Source: a virus
Reading direction: 5' to 3' (one strand)
Length of the DNA: 64,000 nt
Virus record (IMG/VR): IMGVR_UViG_3300020182_002648
Span: 64,001 to 128,000 of that record
Part shown: positions 912-51,965 of the stretch, in pieces
Layout: the number at the start of each line of letters is the position of its first letter
Numbering within the stretch: the stretch's first letter is position 1
Notes under the pieces: model-generated
Databases searched by the model: none
Seen by the model: the letters and a program-made list of their open reading frames with translations, nothing else
What the model was told of the DNA's origin: nothing
Program-made: the position numbers and the translations under genes

Positions 912-1088
912 TTATCCGAAGTTTCTAAATTCAAACCGGTCCTGGCGCTCAGCAGTGTCTGCCGGGCAAAGTCCTAGATCCTCTGCAATCTCTTTGATGT
1001 CTAGAAATCGATCCATCATTTCCAGACCGTATGTTCCTAAATTTTCGTGAATGTGTATTTCCAATTGTTCCCAGATGTTTTCGTCCAT
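912..1088 (-). CDS. 58-aa acidic early protein (MDENIWEQLE...), not in ORF track
   Basis: ATG at end of leader module; TAA abuts the next -35. Confidence 0.7.
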   Translation of the reverse strand: MDENIWEQLEIHIHENLGTYGLEMMDRFLDIKEIAEDLGLCPADTAERQDRFEFRNFG

Positions 1089-1150
1089 AATATGTGTTGT
1101 TAATATTGTTGTTATGATCTAATTATAAGTGATACTCCGGTAAAGGGCAA

Positions 1151-1315
1151 CTAATCGCTGTCCTTTATAAAATCTGAATATTTGTAATGTTCAACACCAC
1201 TCACGAGATTTTCGTGCACAATATCAAATATTTCAGATTCAGTATAGCCTGAAAGGTCTTGTTCCAATTTAAGTTCGCGAATTAGTTGTTGTACTAATAA
1301 TTTTAAGTAATCCAT
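1151..1315 (-). CDS. 54-aa early protein (MDYLKLLV...EHYKYSDFIKDSD), paralog of 1690-1866
   Basis: manual translation; leader module; shared MDxLKL and EHYxYSDFIKD. Confidence 0.75.
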   Translation of the reverse strand: MDYLKLLVQQLIRELKLEQDLSGYTESEIFDIVHENLVSGVEHYKYSDFIKDSD

Positions 1316-1377
1316 AATATAATGTTGTTAATTGTTGTTATAATATAATTATAAGCTATTTTGAAGGTATCGGCAAC

Positions 1378-1506
1378 TTAATCTTCATCTCGTATCTCGA
1401 TATCACGATCCACGACAATTCTGTTGCCTGTTTCGTCGTCATAACACAAGCTCCAGCAGCCCTCTCCAGTTAGCTCTATCAAGTAATAATTTTTTGTATT
1501 GTCCAT
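1378..1506 (-). CDS. 42-aa acidic early protein (MDNTKNYYLIE...)
   Basis: ATG at end of leader module; stop overlaps the next -35. Confidence 0.65.
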   Translation of the reverse strand: MDNTKNYYLIELTGEGCWSLCYDDETGNRIVVDRDIEIRDED

Positions 1507-1568
1507 AATATAATGTTGTTAATTGTTGTTATAATATAATTATAAGCTATTCTGATGAAATGAGCAAC

Positions 1569-1700
1569 TTAATCTTCATCATATTTCATATCCACATCCA
1601 ATACAGCACAAATCTGCCATATCATCATCTCTTTCTCTTGATCATCATTCCCATCAGTTGATGTGATGATATCGGCAATCTCTTTCAATTTATTTTCCAT
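1569..1700 (-). CDS. 43-aa acidic early protein (MENKLKEIAD...)
   Basis: overlaps the stop of the upstream ORF and ends at the next -35. Confidence 0.6.
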   Translation of the reverse strand: MENKLKEIADIITSTDGNDDQEKEMMIWQICAVLDVDMKYDED

Positions 1701-1866
1701 CTGAATTGTCGTCCTTTATGAAATCTGAATAGCTGTAATGCTCTATCATACTCTCAACATTTTCCATAACACATTCAAATACATCTTCATCAGACATATC
1801 TGAACAGTTGAACTGTTCTTTTTGGAACTCAATAGCTCCCTTAATAAATAATTTTAAATGATCCAT
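1690..1866 (-). CDS. 58-aa early protein (MDHLKLFI...EHYSYSDFIKDD), paralog of 1151-1315
   Basis: manual translation; leader module. Confidence 0.75.
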   Translation of the reverse strand: MDHLKLFIKGAIEFQKEQFNCSDMSDEDVFECVMENVESMIEHYSYSDFIKDDNSDGK

Positions 1867-2216
1867 AATATAATGTTGTTAATTGTTGTTATAATATAAT
1901 TATAAGCTCTTTATTATGATCAGGCAACTATTATCCAGGCTTGTTATATATATCTCGGAACAGTCCTCCCCATATCCGTCATATCATGCTGAAAATAAGA
2001 CTATCCTTATACAGTTACTTTTGAGGCTGTAATAGGAATAGCTATTCCATTTGCGTTTCATTATTGTTCATACCTAATTATAAGATATTCTCACAAAATG
2101 AGCAACTTTCTAGATAGGAGGAAGTTTCTACCTATTCAGAAAACAGGAGGAATCTGTAAACCCTTAATATTCAACAACCAAATCCGTTTTCTTCCTAGAT
2201 GTTGCAATTTTCCTAT

Positions 2217-4998: not shown

Positions 4999-5268
4999 TC
5001 AATCCCATTTGTATCCAATGTCCAAGGTTCTGCCGAAATGACTCAGTGAGCTCAATGCATGTTTGACATGAAATTTCAAGTCCATGTCTCGAGAGTCCAG
5101 TGCAAACTCTTGCAGGTCTCGCAAGTAAGCGTAACTGTTGTAGTATGCTTCACGCACCTTGCCGCTTGTGAGTTGTTCTTGTGCTCGTTGAGCTGTTGCT
5201 GCCTCAACATCCTCCGCAGTCAAGTCATCATCTAAAACTGTTCCATCATTATCTGTATTGTTTGTCAT
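4999..5268 (-). CDS. hypothetical protein
   Basis: ORF track. Confidence 0.6.
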   Translation of the reverse strand: MTNNTDNDGTVLDDDLTAEDVEAATAQRAQEQLTSGKVREAYYNSYAYLRDLQEFALDSRDMDLKFHVKHALSSLSHFGRTLDIGYKWD

Positions 5269-5277
5269 AATTGTATC

Positions 5278-5430
5278 CTATTTTTTCATTTTCTTCTCTG
5301 CGAGAGTCTTTGCCTTTTCTAGTCCAAATTGACCAACCATTCGTTTGAATGCTTCCCAATTCAATCTAGGTTGAGGCAAACTCTTCCAGGTTTTCATTCT
5401 CAATTCGGCTTTGTCTTTTGCGTTATCCAT
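5278..5430 (-). CDS. 50-aa basic protein, leaderless (MDNAKDKAEL...)
   Basis: TTGCCG-N17-TATAAT-N6-ATG. Confidence 0.65.
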   Translation of the reverse strand: MDNAKDKAELRMKTWKSLPQPRLNWEAFKRMVGQFGLEKAKTLAEKKMKK

Positions 5431-5467
5431 AAGTTAATTATAACATATATTCATCAGATCGGCAACT

Positions 5468-5502
5468 AAAAAGCCCGCCTGCTAACAACAACAGACGGGC
5501 TT
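5468..5502 (-). terminator. intrinsic terminator with UUGUUGUUAG loop (candidate antisense sRNA)
   Basis: AAGCCCGUCUG/CAGGCGGGCUU stem followed by a U-run on the minus strand. Confidence 0.8.
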
Positions 5503-5525
5503 GGATCATATTATGGATACGAAAT

Positions 5526-5819
5526 TTATGCGTGAGTCAATGAATTACTATCAATTCCTAAAATCCTATCATCAGCGAATTGGACATAGTATCTAGTGAA
5601 CATACGTGCGTTGACACCTCGTCCTCTAATTGTACCATCAGCTGCACAACTGACTGCGCGTACTTTGGCCACCCATCCTGTTCTCAAATGAACTGGTCCG
5701 CTAGCCCAATGAGCTGGATCAGTCACTTTGACCATTGCTCCTGGTTTGAACTTGCACCTCTTGTTGGTCCAATTTGTTTTGATGTTTGCCTTGATGTCTC
5801 TTAAGTTTGTTACTTTCAT
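5526..5819 (-). CDS. small basic SH3/KOW-like beta-barrel protein (start revised to MKVTN)
   Basis: KFKPGAMVKV...YYVQFAD...IDSNSL pattern; promoter at 5853-5883 lies inside the longer ORF call. Confidence 0.55.
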   Translation of the reverse strand: MKVTNLRDIKANIKTNWTNKRCKFKPGAMVKVTDPAHWASGPVHLRTGWVAKVRAVSCAADGTIRGRGVNARMFTRYYVQFADDRILGIDSNSLTHA

Positions 5820-5883
5820 AAATGTTTGTTTGTTAATTGATGTTATGTTTTGATTATAAGTTATTTGATAATGAACGGCAACT

Positions 5884-6729
5884 TTAGAACCATTTACCTT
5901 TCTTGTTTTTCTTCTTGAAGGGGTTTCCAATATCTTTGACTGGATTCACAATAACTTCTTTGATTGGATTCACAATAACTTCTTTGACTGGTTCCACTAT
6001 TTTATCTTGAACAGGTGCAACAATGTTGTCATTGACAAGATCCTTGGTCACGTCAATTGCTTCTTCAACTGGCTCAACAGTAGCATCGTAAACTGGATCA
6101 ACGTCAACTGTGACAGTACCTTCAGTCTTCACTCCTACAATCAAAGCGAGATTCACTGAACCTCCAATAGTGATCGGTTTACTATCATCATTCCACTCCG
6201 GTACTTGATAACCTCCTCCAATTGTACCACCAGCTTGAGCACCTACACTAACGCTTGTGTTGTTAGTCACTGCGACTCCTAAACTTTTGTTAGTATAATA
6301 CGTCCTGGTACCTGCTCCTGCTTTAGCTCCAGCAATTGCTCCACCCTCAAACCAACAACCATCCATGCCTACATTAGCTTGTGCTCCTGCCCATGCATAC
6401 AGTTCGGCATAAGCATATATTTCAGCACCAGCAGCATGATCACCATTCTCGTATTCTAATTTAGCGGCCACTTCTGCGCGTAATTTGGCTTCTGCGACTG
6501 CCTCAATATATAAATTGTCTTCTCTGTATTCAACACCATATTTGGCTGATGCACTAGCTTCTGCATTTAACAATGCTTGACCAGTCAGCACCCCACCGTC
6601 AGGATCAGTCCATTGACCTTGAGCGTTGACATATATACCAGCGCCTGCTCTGTACTCCCCGTTAAGGCTTGTGTCTGTATTGTCAGCATTGGCTCCCGCT
6701 GACGCGTCTGTATTTACATTTGTACTCAT
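5884..6729 (-). CDS. late Ala/Gly-rich beta protein with C-terminal PVKEVIVN repeats
   Basis: 281-aa ORF; TAAGTA-N5-ATG. Confidence 0.7.
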   Translation of the reverse strand: MSTNVNTDASAGANADNTDTSLNGEYRAGAGIYVNAQGQWTDPDGGVLTGQALLNAEASASAKYGVEYREDNLYIEAVAEAKLRAEVAAKLEYENGDHAAGAEIYAYAELYAWAGAQANVGMDGCWFEGGAIAGAKAGAGTRTYYTNKSLGVAVTNNTSVSVGAQAGGTIGGGYQVPEWNDDSKPITIGGSVNLALIVGVKTEGTVTVDVDPVYDATVEPVEEAIDVTKDLVNDNIVAPVQDKIVEPVKEVIVNPIKEVIVNPVKDIGNPFKKKNKKGKWF

Positions 6730-6985
6730 GTTATTACTTATTGAGTATATTTGTTAATCAATCTTATGATAGTATATACAATCAATCCATATACTGTGGC
6801 TCCAAGAAGCTCTGGTAAGTATGTATATATATGTTCTACGAACTGTATGACTGCTTGAGCGTCACTCTCTGTAATTGTTGGTTGGTTGTTCATATAGTTA
6901 TGTTCGACTTTGATACCATTCCCATAATATGATCAATACCAAGAATGTACACATACCATATGCAAACACTTCAATCATCATGTGA

Positions 6986-7267
6986 TCAACTGTCGTGTAG
7001 AAATTGTTGTGCAGCCAACTGCGCGATGTCAACACCTGGTACATTGACACTAGGTGTGTCTCTGGTGATGATTTTGTACATTTCTCTAACCTCTCTGATT
7101 CTCCTGAGGTTTCTCGCGACTGTGCTTTGTTCTGTTACATTCCGTGGCCGGTTTGGCTTGTGTGAATTGTTGTTCATCTCATCCAGGAACAAAAATGCTC
7201 CTTCGAGTTGTGCTAATTTCAAACTCATTTCTGCTACAATGTTAGGTGTGTTGTTATTATCGCTCAT
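6986..7267 (-). CDS. hypothetical protein, leaderless
   Basis: TTGCAC-N17-TATAAT-N6-ATG. Confidence 0.7.
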   Translation of the reverse strand: MSDNNNTPNIVAEMSLKLAQLEGAFLFLDEMNNNSHKPNRPRNVTEQSTVARNLRRIREVREMYKIITRDTPSVNVPGVDIAQLAAQQFLHDS

Positions 7268-8066: not shown

Positions 8067-8536
8067 TTGCTTGTGGTCTGTGATCCGCCCATCAGTTCTG
8101 CAATCTTGCCAACTAGATGTAGATCATCAGCGGTTATAGTGAATGAGTTGGTGAACCAATCACTGATTTTCACCTCTTTGATCATTGTAAGGTATGCATC
8201 GTAAGCTTCGTATTCGTCTATCATAATATTGTGTTTGTTGTTATTTGTTAAACTTTAATTATAACGTAAGAAATTATAAAGCGCAACAGTAAATATTTGT
8301 ATGATACATCATGTAACAATTGAGCAAATAATGTCCTTAATCGTCGTCGCTACTGTTCTGGTCACTTTTTTTTAAAAACCAATCTGACACTAGATCTGGA
8401 CTGAACACTTCTTGAGCTGTTTCCGGGTGAAAACCAACCGCAACTAACAGTCCCCTGAAGTGTTCGGCTGCTGCTGTCACATCACCTTCTGTAAATTCTA
8501 CGCTAGCGGTAGTTTGTGTTGTTTCTATCGTTATTT

Positions 8537-49830: not shown

Positions 49831-50325
49831 ATGCACGAGCAATTATTAGAACTAGCTGACTCTCCACCGGACTTAGAGCAGTACACACCTTACGTTCAAT
49901 ATGGACCACCAGTTTTAATTTATGGTGTCCCTATCAAGAATAGCTATGATCATGAGAGGTTGACTCTCAATGAGAGTTTAGAACCCAAAAGATTGAGAGT
50001 TGGTACTGATTGCTTTTATGGCTTTATATTGCAACCGACACGATTGATGAGCAAGGTGTGTAGTGTTGCAACTAGTGTGCCGATGGATCACCCAGACTGT
50101 GTCAATATGTATAAGAAGAGACTCGCCATGTGTGAATTGACATGTGACAATTGTTGGGCTCACTTGAGTGAAAATATTTTTCCTATTGATGCGAATAATT
50201 TACCTCTCTTAGCTATAAATAGTCGGTACATGCGGATGGCGAACCCCATGCCACTACAATCAACTCGCACCAAACTTCCCTGGTTCACACAACACGCACA
50301 AATGAAAATTTTTATCCTCAAATAA
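49831..50325 (+). CDS. hypothetical protein, leaderless
   Basis: TTGACT-N17-TATCAT-N6-ATG. Confidence 0.6.
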   Translation: MHEQLLELADSPPDLEQYTPYVQYGPPVLIYGVPIKNSYDHERLTLNESLEPKRLRVGTDCFYGFILQPTRLMSKVCSVATSVPMDHPDCVNMYKKRLAMCELTCDNCWAHLSENIFPIDANNLPLLAINSRYMRMANPMPLQSTRTKLPWFTQHAQMKIFILK

Positions 50326-51965
50326 TGAACGTAAAGAAACGTAACAACAAAACAGAAGAATTTAACGAACAGAAAATTCGCGCTTGTATCGAGAGATGCT
50401 GCGTCGATCCTGAAGGAAATGTATACCCCGGGGTCACAGCTGATACTATAGTGTTTAATGCTAAGATCAAACTGTATGATGGTATAACAACTCAAGAGAT
50501 CGATGACAGTATAGTCAAGAGCGCTCGTAGCATGATTGAGCAAGAGCCTAACTACAAGTTTGTTGCTGCCAAGTTGTTGTTAAACACCATATACAAAGAA
50601 GTGTTCAACACTGGTGTTGATGGTGATGCGTTTGAATTACAATATCGTACCAGCTTCATTGTGAATCTCAAGAAACTGGTGAAAGCAGGTATCTTGCACA
50701 AAGACATGGCCAAGTTTGATCTTAACAAGTTGTCGAGTCATTTGAAAATTGAGAGAGACAACAATTTCGAATATTTAGGTATTCAGACTATCTATGATAG
50801 ATATCTGCATCATATTGATGAACAGAAAATGGAGGCTCCTCAGGCATTCTGGATGAGAGTCGCCATGGGACTGGCATTAGGTGAAGCTAAGGAAGATAGA
50901 GTCGAGTGGGCTTTGAAGTTCTATGATCAATTGAGCAGTTTCAATTGGATGAGCAGCACTCCTACATTGTTTAATAGTGGCGGGACGTTCAGTCAGCTGA
51001 GCAGTTGTTTCCTCAACACATTCGAAGACAGTATTGTGGGTATATTTGATGGCTTGTTACAAGAGGCTCTCAAGAACAAATATTCAGGTGGGTTGGGTAT
51101 GGACATGACCAACTTCAGAGCCACAAACAGTTATATCAAGGGTACAAATGGAGAGACACAAGGCGCTGTATACTTCTGGAAGCTGTATGGTGACATGCTC
51201 ACTGCTGTCAATCAAGGTGGCAAGAGAAGAGGAGCCGGATGTGCTTACTTAGAGACTTGGCATGCTGATATTGAAGACTTTATTCAATTGCGGAAGAACA
51301 CAGGAGATGAACGCAAGCGCGCTCATGATATGAACACAGCTAACTGGATTCCTGATCTGTTTCTCAAATGCGTCAATGAGGACAAGCCATGGTATTTGTT
51401 CACACCCAATGAGACTCCTGATCTTCATGATTTATATGGTAAGGATTTTGAGAAGAGGTACTATGAGTATGTCAAGAAAGGTAAAGCAGGAGAGCTCAGA
51501 GTGTTTAGAGAGGTTCAAGCTAAGGATCTGTGGAAGAAAATGCTTAGATCTCTATTCGAGACTGGTCATCCATGGATCACTTTCAAAGACTCATGCAATC
51601 TGAGAAGCCCTCAACAACATGCTGGTGTGGTTCACAGCAGTAACCTTTGTGTAGTGGGTGATACAGAGATAGATTGTATCATAGATGGTCGTAACAGTGT
51701 TGTACGTATGGATGAACTTGTTGATCTACATAACAGTGGTAAACGATGTGAGACAATGTCATATAACGTCGATACACAAGAGTATGAATATAAGCTAATA
51801 ACTGATGCTGCTATGACGAACGACAACGCAGAGATCCTAGAGATTGAGGATTGTACCTCCGGTAAGGTCATCAGATGTACTGCTGATCACAAGATATACA
51901 CAACCAACCGTGGGTATGTACCTGCCGGAGAGCTAACAGAGGAGGATATTTTAGTAATATCGTAA
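50325..51965 (+). CDS. nrdA: ribonucleotide reductase alpha, N-terminal part fused to split intein IntN
   Basis: ATP cone, TPTLFNSG, LSSC, ends HSSNL|CVVGDT...TADH intein. Confidence 0.95.
   Translation: MNVKKRNNKTEEFNEQKIRACIERCCVDPEGNVYPGVTADTIVFNAKIKLYDGITTQEIDDSIVKSARSMIEQEPNYKFVAAKLLLNTIYKEVFNTGVDGDAFELQYRTSFIVNLKKLVKAGILHKDMAKFDLNKLSSHLKIERDNNFEYLGIQTIYDRYLHHIDEQKMEAPQAFWMRVAMGLALGEAKEDRVEWALKFYDQLSSFNWMSSTPTLFNSGGTFSQLSSCFLNTFEDSIVGIFDGLLQEALKNKYSGGLGMDMTNFRATNSYIKGTNGETQGAVYFWKLYGDMLTAVNQGGKRRGAGCAYLETWHADIEDFIQLRKNTGDERKRAHDMNTANWIPDLFLKCVNEDKPWYLFTPNETPDLHDLYGKDFEKRYYEYVKKGKAGELRVFREVQAKDLWKKMLRSLFETGHPWITFKDSCNLRSPQQHAGVVHSSNLCVVGDTEIDCIIDGRNSVVRMDELVDLHNSGKRCETMSYNVDTQEYEYKLITDAAMTNDNAEILEIEDCTSGKVIRCTADHKIYTTNRGYVPAGELTEEDILVIS
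51648..51965 (+). mobile_element. split intein N-half (105 aa)
   Basis: block A CVVGDTEI, block B CTADHKIYT.NRGY, then stop. Confidence 0.92.

Follow-up and report, generated by a model that had tools for sequence, protein, structure and literature searches.

T4-type phages are a model for timed gene expression, and their known early shut-off works through proteins (RegA, RegB and changes to RNA polymerase). RegA of T4 is a protein that damps many early mRNAs post-transcriptionally by occluding AU-rich start-codon regions. In phages P1 and P7, the c4 antisense RNA pairs through two short single-stranded segments around the ribosome-binding site of the phage's own mRNA; it belongs to the same transcription unit as its target, and its control is limited to a single immunity operon, icd-ant, in a temperate phage. 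In the icaR mRNA of Staphylococcus aureus, a motif in the 3′ untranslated region (3′ UTR) pairs back to where translation of that transcript starts. Here we describe a hairpin element in a 64,000-nt stretch of viral DNA, bases 64001–128000 of the 146.8-kb IMG/VR virus record IMGVR_UViG_3300020182_002648, which is judged about 65% complete; this whole stretch is called the window below. The element is the predicted terminator of the mRNA upstream of it, and its single-stranded part holds a conserved seed that is complementary to the predicted targets. We put at roughly 50% the probability that it is an anti-leader module, located at the 3′ ends of early transcripts, that covers the AUG of leadered early mRNAs by pairing in cis or in trans.

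The outcome predicted for such a module is that of RegA, with RNA in the place of protein. Unlike c4, the RNA is a terminator and its predicted targets form a whole early-gene class of a lytic T4-type phage; there is no homology to c4, and Rfam gave no match at the gathering score or at E <= 1 for the window or for the region of a second copy described below. Whereas icaR is a single bacterial gene with an anti-Shine–Dalgarno motif, the predicted transcripts here are nested, polycistronic phage RNAs in which two seeds face a leader lacking a Shine–Dalgarno (SD) sequence. Two further systems come close. CcsR1–4 of Rhodobacter sphaeroides are 3′ UTR-derived small RNAs with a co-encoded small RNA-binding protein, CcaF1 (PMC8034643). 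PeSLs (promoter-early stem-loops) of T4-type phages are presented by Arbiol et al. 2010 (PMC2839356) and Comeau et al. 2014 (PMC4122927) as stem-loop terminators that abut sigma-70-like early promoters where hyperplastic regions have their indels. Regulatory RNAs of the antisense or 3′ UTR-derived type and PeSL cassettes are both known kinds; here a terminator, the least costly RNA conceivable, appears to bear two conserved seeds that are antisense to early leaders of the same phage.

Judged by its capsid gene, the phage is a divergent, uncultured marine T4-type myovirus, because the Gp23 capsid protein encoded in the same record matches PF07068 at 319 bits and is only ~36% identical to cyanomyovirus gp23. 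Its relatives stem from Tara and other ocean assemblies, and a megablast search of window positions 5000–6800 against GenBank phages returned no matches. The minus strand of the early region carries ~45 near-identical early promoters of the form (A)GTTGC-N17-TATAAT, and the predicted early mRNAs fall into two classes. Leaderless mRNAs follow the arrangement TATAAT-N6-ATG, while leadered mRNAs have a leader of ~30 nt without an SD sequence (AUAACAACAAUUAACAACAUUAUAUUAUGG); these leaders are nearly unstructured (0 to -0.3 kcal/mol). Promoter-proximal sequences from all fetched relatives comprise 76 distinct leadered and 50 distinct leaderless versions, and the 76 leaders contain 47 exact TAACAACAA.

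About half of the ~45 promoters, which span positions 190–28600 of the minus strand, have an ATG 6–7 nt past TATAAT. The -10 boxes of this leaderless type end, for example, at 590, 4957, 5437, 7274, 9172, 10928, 14426, 16663, 20786, 21784 and 22950, and leaderless mRNAs, as predicted here, are unusual in a T4-type phage. The leadered form resembles the leaderless form with a 26-nt insert that has a TATATT repeat on its flanks. Orthologous small genes swap class: the gene whose product starts MDHLK... is leadered in the window (1690–1866) and leaderless in the relative L052 (4540–4620). Since orthologues switch class between lineages, the leader behaves as an exchangeable module.

The copy of the element in the window, copy 1, follows an early gene for a protein of 97 amino acids (aa). 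Its parts, with the promoter that adjoins it, are as follows.

5526–5528, minus strand: TAA stop codon of the 97-aa open reading frame (ORF), where the element starts, followed by AUUUCGUAUCCAUAAUAUGAUCC.
5503–5525, minus strand: single-stranded 3′ UTR flank with the seed CCAUAAUAU at 5508–5516 (AUCCAUAAUAU at 5508–5518); ahead of the seed, beside the stop codon, stands a conserved AAAYUUU.
5492–5502, minus strand: 5′ arm of the terminator stem, AAGCCCGUCUG, from fold and covariation.
5482–5491, minus strand: invariant loop UUGUUGUUAG (0 of 10 columns vary), within which UUGUUGUUA is complementary to UAACAACAA.
5471–5481, minus strand: 3′ arm of the terminator stem, CAGGCGGGCUU, from fold and covariation.
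5466–5470, minus strand: remaining U-tract, at which homology with close relatives breaks (a mosaic junction).
5437–5465, minus strand: next early promoter, TTGCCG-17-TATAAT, abutting the U-tract (-35 box 5460–5465, -10 box 5437–5442) and serving a leaderless 50-aa gene with its ATG at 5430.

The TAA is thus followed by a 22-nt tail, an 11-bp G+C-rich stem, the loop, the U-tract and, without a gap, the -35 box. The hairpin (5471–5502, minus strand) folds at -25.6 kcal/mol with a z-score of -6.1 against dinucleotide shuffles, none of 200 being as good, and is the strongest sense-strand terminator within the first 57 kb of the window. Five to six U directly follow the stem in the window and in four relatives (L007, L039, L052 and L059). 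Fold and U-tract together strongly predict a hairpin of the intrinsic-terminator type. The flank seed of copy 1 can form a weak 6-bp hairpin, which is not conserved in copy 2. From its letters only, we infer a resemblance of the AAAYUUU at the stop codon to an RNase E site.

A terminator scan of the entire record located copy 2 at 6.7 kb downstream, in the same transcription direction (window coordinate about -1250; G000:C1:62738-62811). It follows an unrelated 120-aa gene and reads UAA-ACUUUAUA-CCAUAAUAU-AAUCC-AGGCGGGUCG-UUGUUGUUAG-CGGCUCGCCU-UUUUU. Loop and flank seed are the same as in copy 1, while the stem differs in sequence and has the opposite purine/pyrimidine polarity. Each genome holds two paralogous elements, where a first-pass annotation of the window had proposed a single RNA.

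The two invariant pieces of the element face two conserved parts of the leaders, UAACAACAA near the leader's 5′ end and AUAUUAUGG over the start codon. The first-pass annotation had proposed this pairing, and its specifics were borne out: the minus-strand reading it quoted matches the letters at 5466–5530 exactly; UCCAUAAUAU is complementary to the AUG region over 10 nt at 1088, 1315, 1506 and 1866, extending to 11 nt at 1315 and 1866; UAACAACA occurs twice in each of these four cassette leaders; and the order of the seeds is antiparallel and collinear. UAACAACA also occurs once in each of the leaders at 8236, 8905, 12278, 13928 and 24843. The four cassette leaders are listed below with their net cofold gain (ddG, in kcal/mol).

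1864–1892, minus strand: predicted target leader AUAACAACAAUUAACAACAUUAUAUUAUGGAU of ORF 1690–1866; ddG -12.5 (copy 1) and -10.2 (copy 2).
1504–1532, minus strand: predicted target of ORF 1378–1506, with the leader as for ORF 1690–1866; ddG -12.1 with copy 1 and -10.2 with copy 2.
1313–1341, minus strand: predicted target of ORF 1151–1315, with the leader as for ORF 1690–1866; ddG -13.5, with a 16-bp duplex with the copy 1 flank.
1086–1115, minus strand: predicted target leader of ORF 912–1088 (…ACACAUAUUAUGGACGAAA); ddG -14.7.

Duplex energies are -10 to -11.6 kcal/mol for flank and leader and -8.9 for loop and leader. Leaders with ATATTATGG have net cofold gains of -12 to -15 kcal/mol for copy 1 and -7 to -10 for copy 2; leaderless mRNAs, which had been proposed to escape, lack the target and reach only 0 to -3 kcal/mol at their 5′ ends. 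Among 900 random 63-nt sense-strand windows taken as background (mean -4.4, sd 2.1), one reaches -13.5. For two fixed 9-mers, being anti-leader and also collinear has an analytic chance of about 3.5e-8, so that the complementarity, for which the annotation had proposed a background check, lies far beyond chance. The RNA-sense strand of the 146.8-kb record has 3 occurrences of CCATAATAT and 4 of TTGTTGTTAG, and the start-proximal and the distal anti-leader 9-mer stand within 40 nt of each other only in copy 1 and copy 2. Separately, two more anti-leader 9-mers (of the UGUUGUUAU type) lie beside a small hairpin inside ORF 16692–17846 (17679–17706, minus strand), probably a coincidence in coding sequence.

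Conservation was studied in orthologues reached via neighbouring proteins rather than via the motif. The element stands directly after the stop codon in all 14 of 14 loci encoding the 120-aa protein (61–93% protein identity), and copy 1 is also found behind the 97-aa homologue of a distant lineage (L052). All lineages reached via neighbouring genes have the element, one branch being without copy 1. Of the loci returned by a metagenome scan, four were true orthologues and one, L042, was a chance match. The 120-aa family had no related loci in IMG/VR, and IMG/VR scans with a 20-nt leader or with CCATAATAT-N-TTGTTGTTAG returned only unrelated, hairpin-less contigs (L003–L006, L012–L038). L002 is the single distant relative found with the 97-aa protein; there the homologue is directly followed by the next gene, and this distant clade has other leaders and, in the rest of the L002 record (G001), no comparable sense-strand terminator.

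Counts of covariation and conservation come from an alignment (A4) of seven distinct versions of the element. In its stem, 96.1% of cells are paired and 7 of 11 pairs have changed on both sides; none of 500 shuffles reaches the observed values, and slid registers collapse. G-U pairs make up 10 of 76 cells, and since these would be A-C on the other strand, the helix is selected on the sense RNA. None of the 19 seed columns (CCAUAAUAU and UUGUUGUUAG) varies, as against 37 of 51 other columns (Fisher P = 1.3e-8). The invariant parts are the 10-nt loop and a 9-nt stretch 5–6 nt upstream of the stem. The closest relative (L007, 99% identical) differs from the window by ~18 substitutions in the 294-nt gene and in the promoter spacer, yet the 58-nt element has no substitution. 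On the other side of the predicted pairing, leaders keep ATAACAACAA and (C)ATATTATGG or (C)AUAUUAUGG in all lineages sampled, and leader variants show 12 transitions to 4 transversions, a bias towards wobble-compatible changes that is too weak and non-independent to carry weight. In 11.6 kb of the L055 sense strand, TGTTGTTA and CCATAATAT occur once each, both inside the element, and TAACAACA occurs 11 times. The seeds are the sole invariant parts of an element whose stem covaries, and they face an unstructured leader without an SD sequence, which supports the anti-leader reading.

These counts bear on the fallback offered by the first-pass annotation, in which the element is an inverted leader relic or hitch-hiking repeat, that is, a neutral remnant of an inverted promoter–leader cassette that was duplicated once. 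The reverse complement does read as a leader followed by ATGGAT, with a 27-codon frame in copy 1, and inverted modules adjoin the hairpin in relatives. Neutral seeds, however, should diverge like the stem and the rest of the UTR, which is not what the 0 of 19 and 37 of 51 variable columns show, and the polarity of the stem differs between the copies while the orientation of the loop is kept. The other strand of copy 2 holds no gene. With invariant seeds beside a fast-changing stem, such a relic is highly improbable. The small plus-strand ORF that would run from the "inverted leader" ATG for 27 codons in copy 1 was itself rejected as a candidate, as copy 2 reads ATG GTA TAA.

Conservation and the reverse-complement relation would also be accounted for, with no RNA pairing, by a protein that binds double-stranded DNA at TAACAACAA and ATATTATGG, the terminator being one more, inverted, bipartite operator; the motifs do lie just downstream of ~20 early promoters. 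For a bipartite DNA site, however, the spacing is poor (16 nt in the element and from ~3 to >20 nt in leaders), every copy is oriented alike with respect to transcription, and one of the motifs sits in the loop of a hairpin for which selection acts on the sense strand, as its G-U pairs show. We consider recognition at the DNA level very unlikely.

The arrangement of the two copies suggests which transcripts would carry the anti-leader module. The best-matching targets are small leadered genes in a tandem array, which copies 1 and 2 bracket. Between the 13 promoters from 5465 to -538 and copy 2 there is no sense-strand terminator of -10 kcal/mol or better, so nested early transcripts are predicted to end mostly in modules; between the upstream promoters and copy 1, the only terminator-like hairpins are at 8433 and 18338. 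Leaders and anti-leader would consequently share molecules, as expected if the pairing acted positively in cis, with the 3′ module closing its own nested transcript into a loop that protects it from 5′-end-dependent decay or 3′ exonucleases, or that times its translation. Bacteria are known to have mRNAs whose 3′ UTR pairs with their own 5′ UTR, as in icaR. Yet the flank seed covers the AUG itself, which would normally block initiation, and pairing is poor for the leader of the gene closest to copy 1. We consider a positive role in cis unlikely.

Behind copy 2 there is no promoter; a conserved non-coding stretch takes its place. This ORF-less, G+C-rich stretch of ~330 nt directly follows the element (G000:C1:62419-62745, window -1581 to -1255; L045:2419-2745, minus strand). 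It contains repeated GUUUCUGAAA, a conserved GCGUGCGAGAC...ACGCAUGC helix and T-runs, and is kept in four relatives (L052, L055, L059 and L060). It has no Rfam matches and shows weak covariation (3 pairs); it could be a non-coding RNA or an origin.

The gene upstream of copy 1 had been proposed to encode a dedicated RNA-binding partner, an architecture like that of CcsR and CcaF1, with a regulatory RNA from the 3′ UTR of a small protein and conserved hairpin loops. The gene and its promoter are as follows.

5526–5819, minus strand: 97-aa early gene for a basic protein (pI 10.5), an ORF with an SH3-like small-barrel model.
5853–5881, minus strand: early promoter of the 97-aa gene, TTGCCG-17-TATAAT; between it and the ATG at 5819 lies a degenerate, CA-rich leader.

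The product is small and basic, as the first-pass annotation had said. Its AF2 model (predicted local distance difference test score 74.6) has five strands and resembles an SH3-like small barrel, and its best structural matches are PetP, KOW and Tudor domains at Z 6–7, a range common for generic folds (VIA-align Z 7.1 for PetP and 6.6–6.8 for KOW domains; best Foldseek E 0.05). Pfam and PHROG gave no match for the 97-aa protein or for a 281-aa protein, and a language-model atlas placed it only in unnamed viral clusters, with PetP and DUF3104 below 0.9. The tie between protein and RNA is not conserved here: copy 2 stands behind the unrelated 120-aa gene, and homologues of the 97-aa protein at 56–64% identity (L008–L011) lack such a 3′ UTR and have the next promoter directly behind them. 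A partner role for the 97-aa protein, suggested by its modelled fold class alone, is not supported. CcsR also differs in that there is no sequence or family relation, and in that CcsR loops are C/U-rich, whereas the loop here consists of U and G only and faces a CA-rich, SD-less leader.

Independently of any pairing role, the hairpin and the promoter that abuts it behave as a cassette of the PeSL type and as a site of exchange for gene modules, since the insertions that distinguish relatives fall exactly at the U-tract; this role as a recombination junction was missed by the first-pass annotation. Homology between close relatives ends at the U-tract and three kinds of downstream context follow. 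In the window and three relatives (L043, L046 and L048) the hairpin is followed by the promoter and the leaderless 50-aa gene; in L007 by a 1.4-kb block of four opposite-strand genes with promoters of the TATAAATA type, which are T4 late-like; and in L039, L047, L049 and L050 by another inverted block, encoding a 179-aa protein and a 176-aa Lectin_C protein. The inverted late modules inserted at the hairpin measure 1.3–1.4 kb (L007, L039 and L047). In L039 and L047, whose contigs extend far enough, the inverted block is followed by a truncated start of the 50-aa gene fused to a second hairpin copy without the flank, which looks like a footprint of hairpin-mediated recombination.

Two observations can be added on these junctions. 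The fusion point is an AAGCC microhomology, at which the early promoter and the first six codons of the 50-aa gene run into the hairpin without CCAUAAUAU (L039 reverse strand 6910–7000; L047:4169-4242). In the inverted modules (L007:870-2260; L039 reverse strand 5620–6900; L047:2864-4545), promoters of the TATAAATA type lie 6–7 nt ahead of the ATG, and the encoded proteins start with MPKISEL or MPTISEL, one having a Lectin_C domain. These are late genes located inside the early region, and they probably serve the virion surface.

The likeness to the PeSLs extends to several features. The phage is T4-type by its Gp23; copy 1 has its stem-loop terminator directly behind a stop codon, with a sigma-70-like early promoter abutting on the other side; the promoter TTGCNN-17-TATAAT is close to the TTGYVH-N17-TAWWAT of nt-1 and KVP40; and the cassette lies in a region of small ORFans, with insertions, deletions and replacements between close relatives. 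Unlike PeSLs, which carry an SD sequence, the mRNAs here have none and are either leaderless or carry a CA-rich leader. There are moreover only two stem-loops for ~45 promoters here, and copy 2 has no promoter behind it. An invariant loop and flank complementary to downstream leaders are not among the features that the available parts of these reports (PMC2839356, PMC4122927) describe for PeSLs.

The element could thus be a terminator and recombination cassette only, its loop and flank being kept for a phage or host factor in RNA binding, processing or termination, and the complementarity a by-product. The exact break of homology at the U-tract, the three downstream contexts (promoter and 50-aa gene, or either of two inverted late-gene modules) and the flank-less hairpin copy that joins a truncated gene start (L039, L047) all fit this account, as does the published description of PeSLs as such terminators at indel sites (PMC2839356, PMC4122927). 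Neither termination nor recombination, however, calls for 19 invariant bases while the stem changes at 7 of 11 pairs. Nor does this account predict that both pieces are collinearly complementary to the leaders (~3.5e-8), and a protein that binds leader RNA would not recognise the leader's complement. We regard a role confined to termination and recombination as somewhat unlikely.

Several findings weigh against the anti-leader reading itself. The seeds are short and AU-rich, and when judged just by energy, copy 2 falls no higher than roughly the best 1% of random windows. The loop had been described as exposed; its 9-nt seed is present, although only partly exposed in the minimum-energy fold, in which the loop is UUGU only and UUG/UAG close three weak pairs (U-G, U-A and G-U). 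Loop and leader motif are both invariant in the sampled lineages, which amounts to co-conservation without covariation between loop and leader. Many leaders have UAACAACA without AUAUUAUGG, the leader of the 97-aa gene itself hardly pairs with the element (ddG -1.9), and one module faces several leaders per transcript. L008–L011 keep the leaders, which in L010 have AACAGCA, yet have no copy 1 behind the 97-aa homologue. Finally, copy 2 has an interrupted U-tract (UUUGUGUUU, CUUUGUGUG) in L060, L064 and L055, where termination may be leaky.

If the anti-leader reading holds, nested early transcripts would all or mostly end in a module, which would work either while still attached (in cis) or as a stable 3′ fragment (in trans). 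First contact would be made between the U/G-only loop and the unstructured, CA-rich leader, after which the flank would zip across the AUG, over up to 16 bp with the 1315 leader. Pairing would block 30S binding, and translation of the leadered class would fall as early RNA accumulates; leaderless early mRNAs, which begin at the AUG and have neither target, would escape. Repression is the likeliest direction of effect, a direction that we infer. Of the interpretation given in the first-pass annotation, the two seeds, real and beyond chance, and the lack of targets in leaderless mRNAs are supported; its protein partner and its single RNA are not. More tentatively, and with considerable doubt, the two modules might make up a regulon-wide RNA timer. 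Every early transcript would end in one of them, and the accumulating 3′ ends would titrate the leadered class (loop to UAACAACAA, flank over the AUG), switching its translation off while leaderless translation continues; RNA would then do RegA's job, and the same cassette would be the recombination joint at which early genes are shuffled.

If true, the anti-leader reading would explain why one phage keeps both leaderless and leadered early mRNAs, only one class being regulable. PeSL-type cassettes could then hold post-transcriptional information besides promoter and terminator, and the SD-less leader and its anti-leader would form an orthogonal pair that reporter assays could test directly. 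Ocean metagenomes (Tara and other marine assemblies) hold the family in abundance, and the mechanism would therefore operate in a widespread group of uncultured phages.

Elsewhere in the window, two minor features were noted. On the minus strand at 18300–18823, a consensus promoter (18793–18821) is followed by a stretch that leads to the terminator-like hairpin at ~18338 (-13.7 kcal/mol). On the plus strand, the ribonucleotide reductase large subunit gene (50325–51965) ends in an intein splicing domain according to Pfam.

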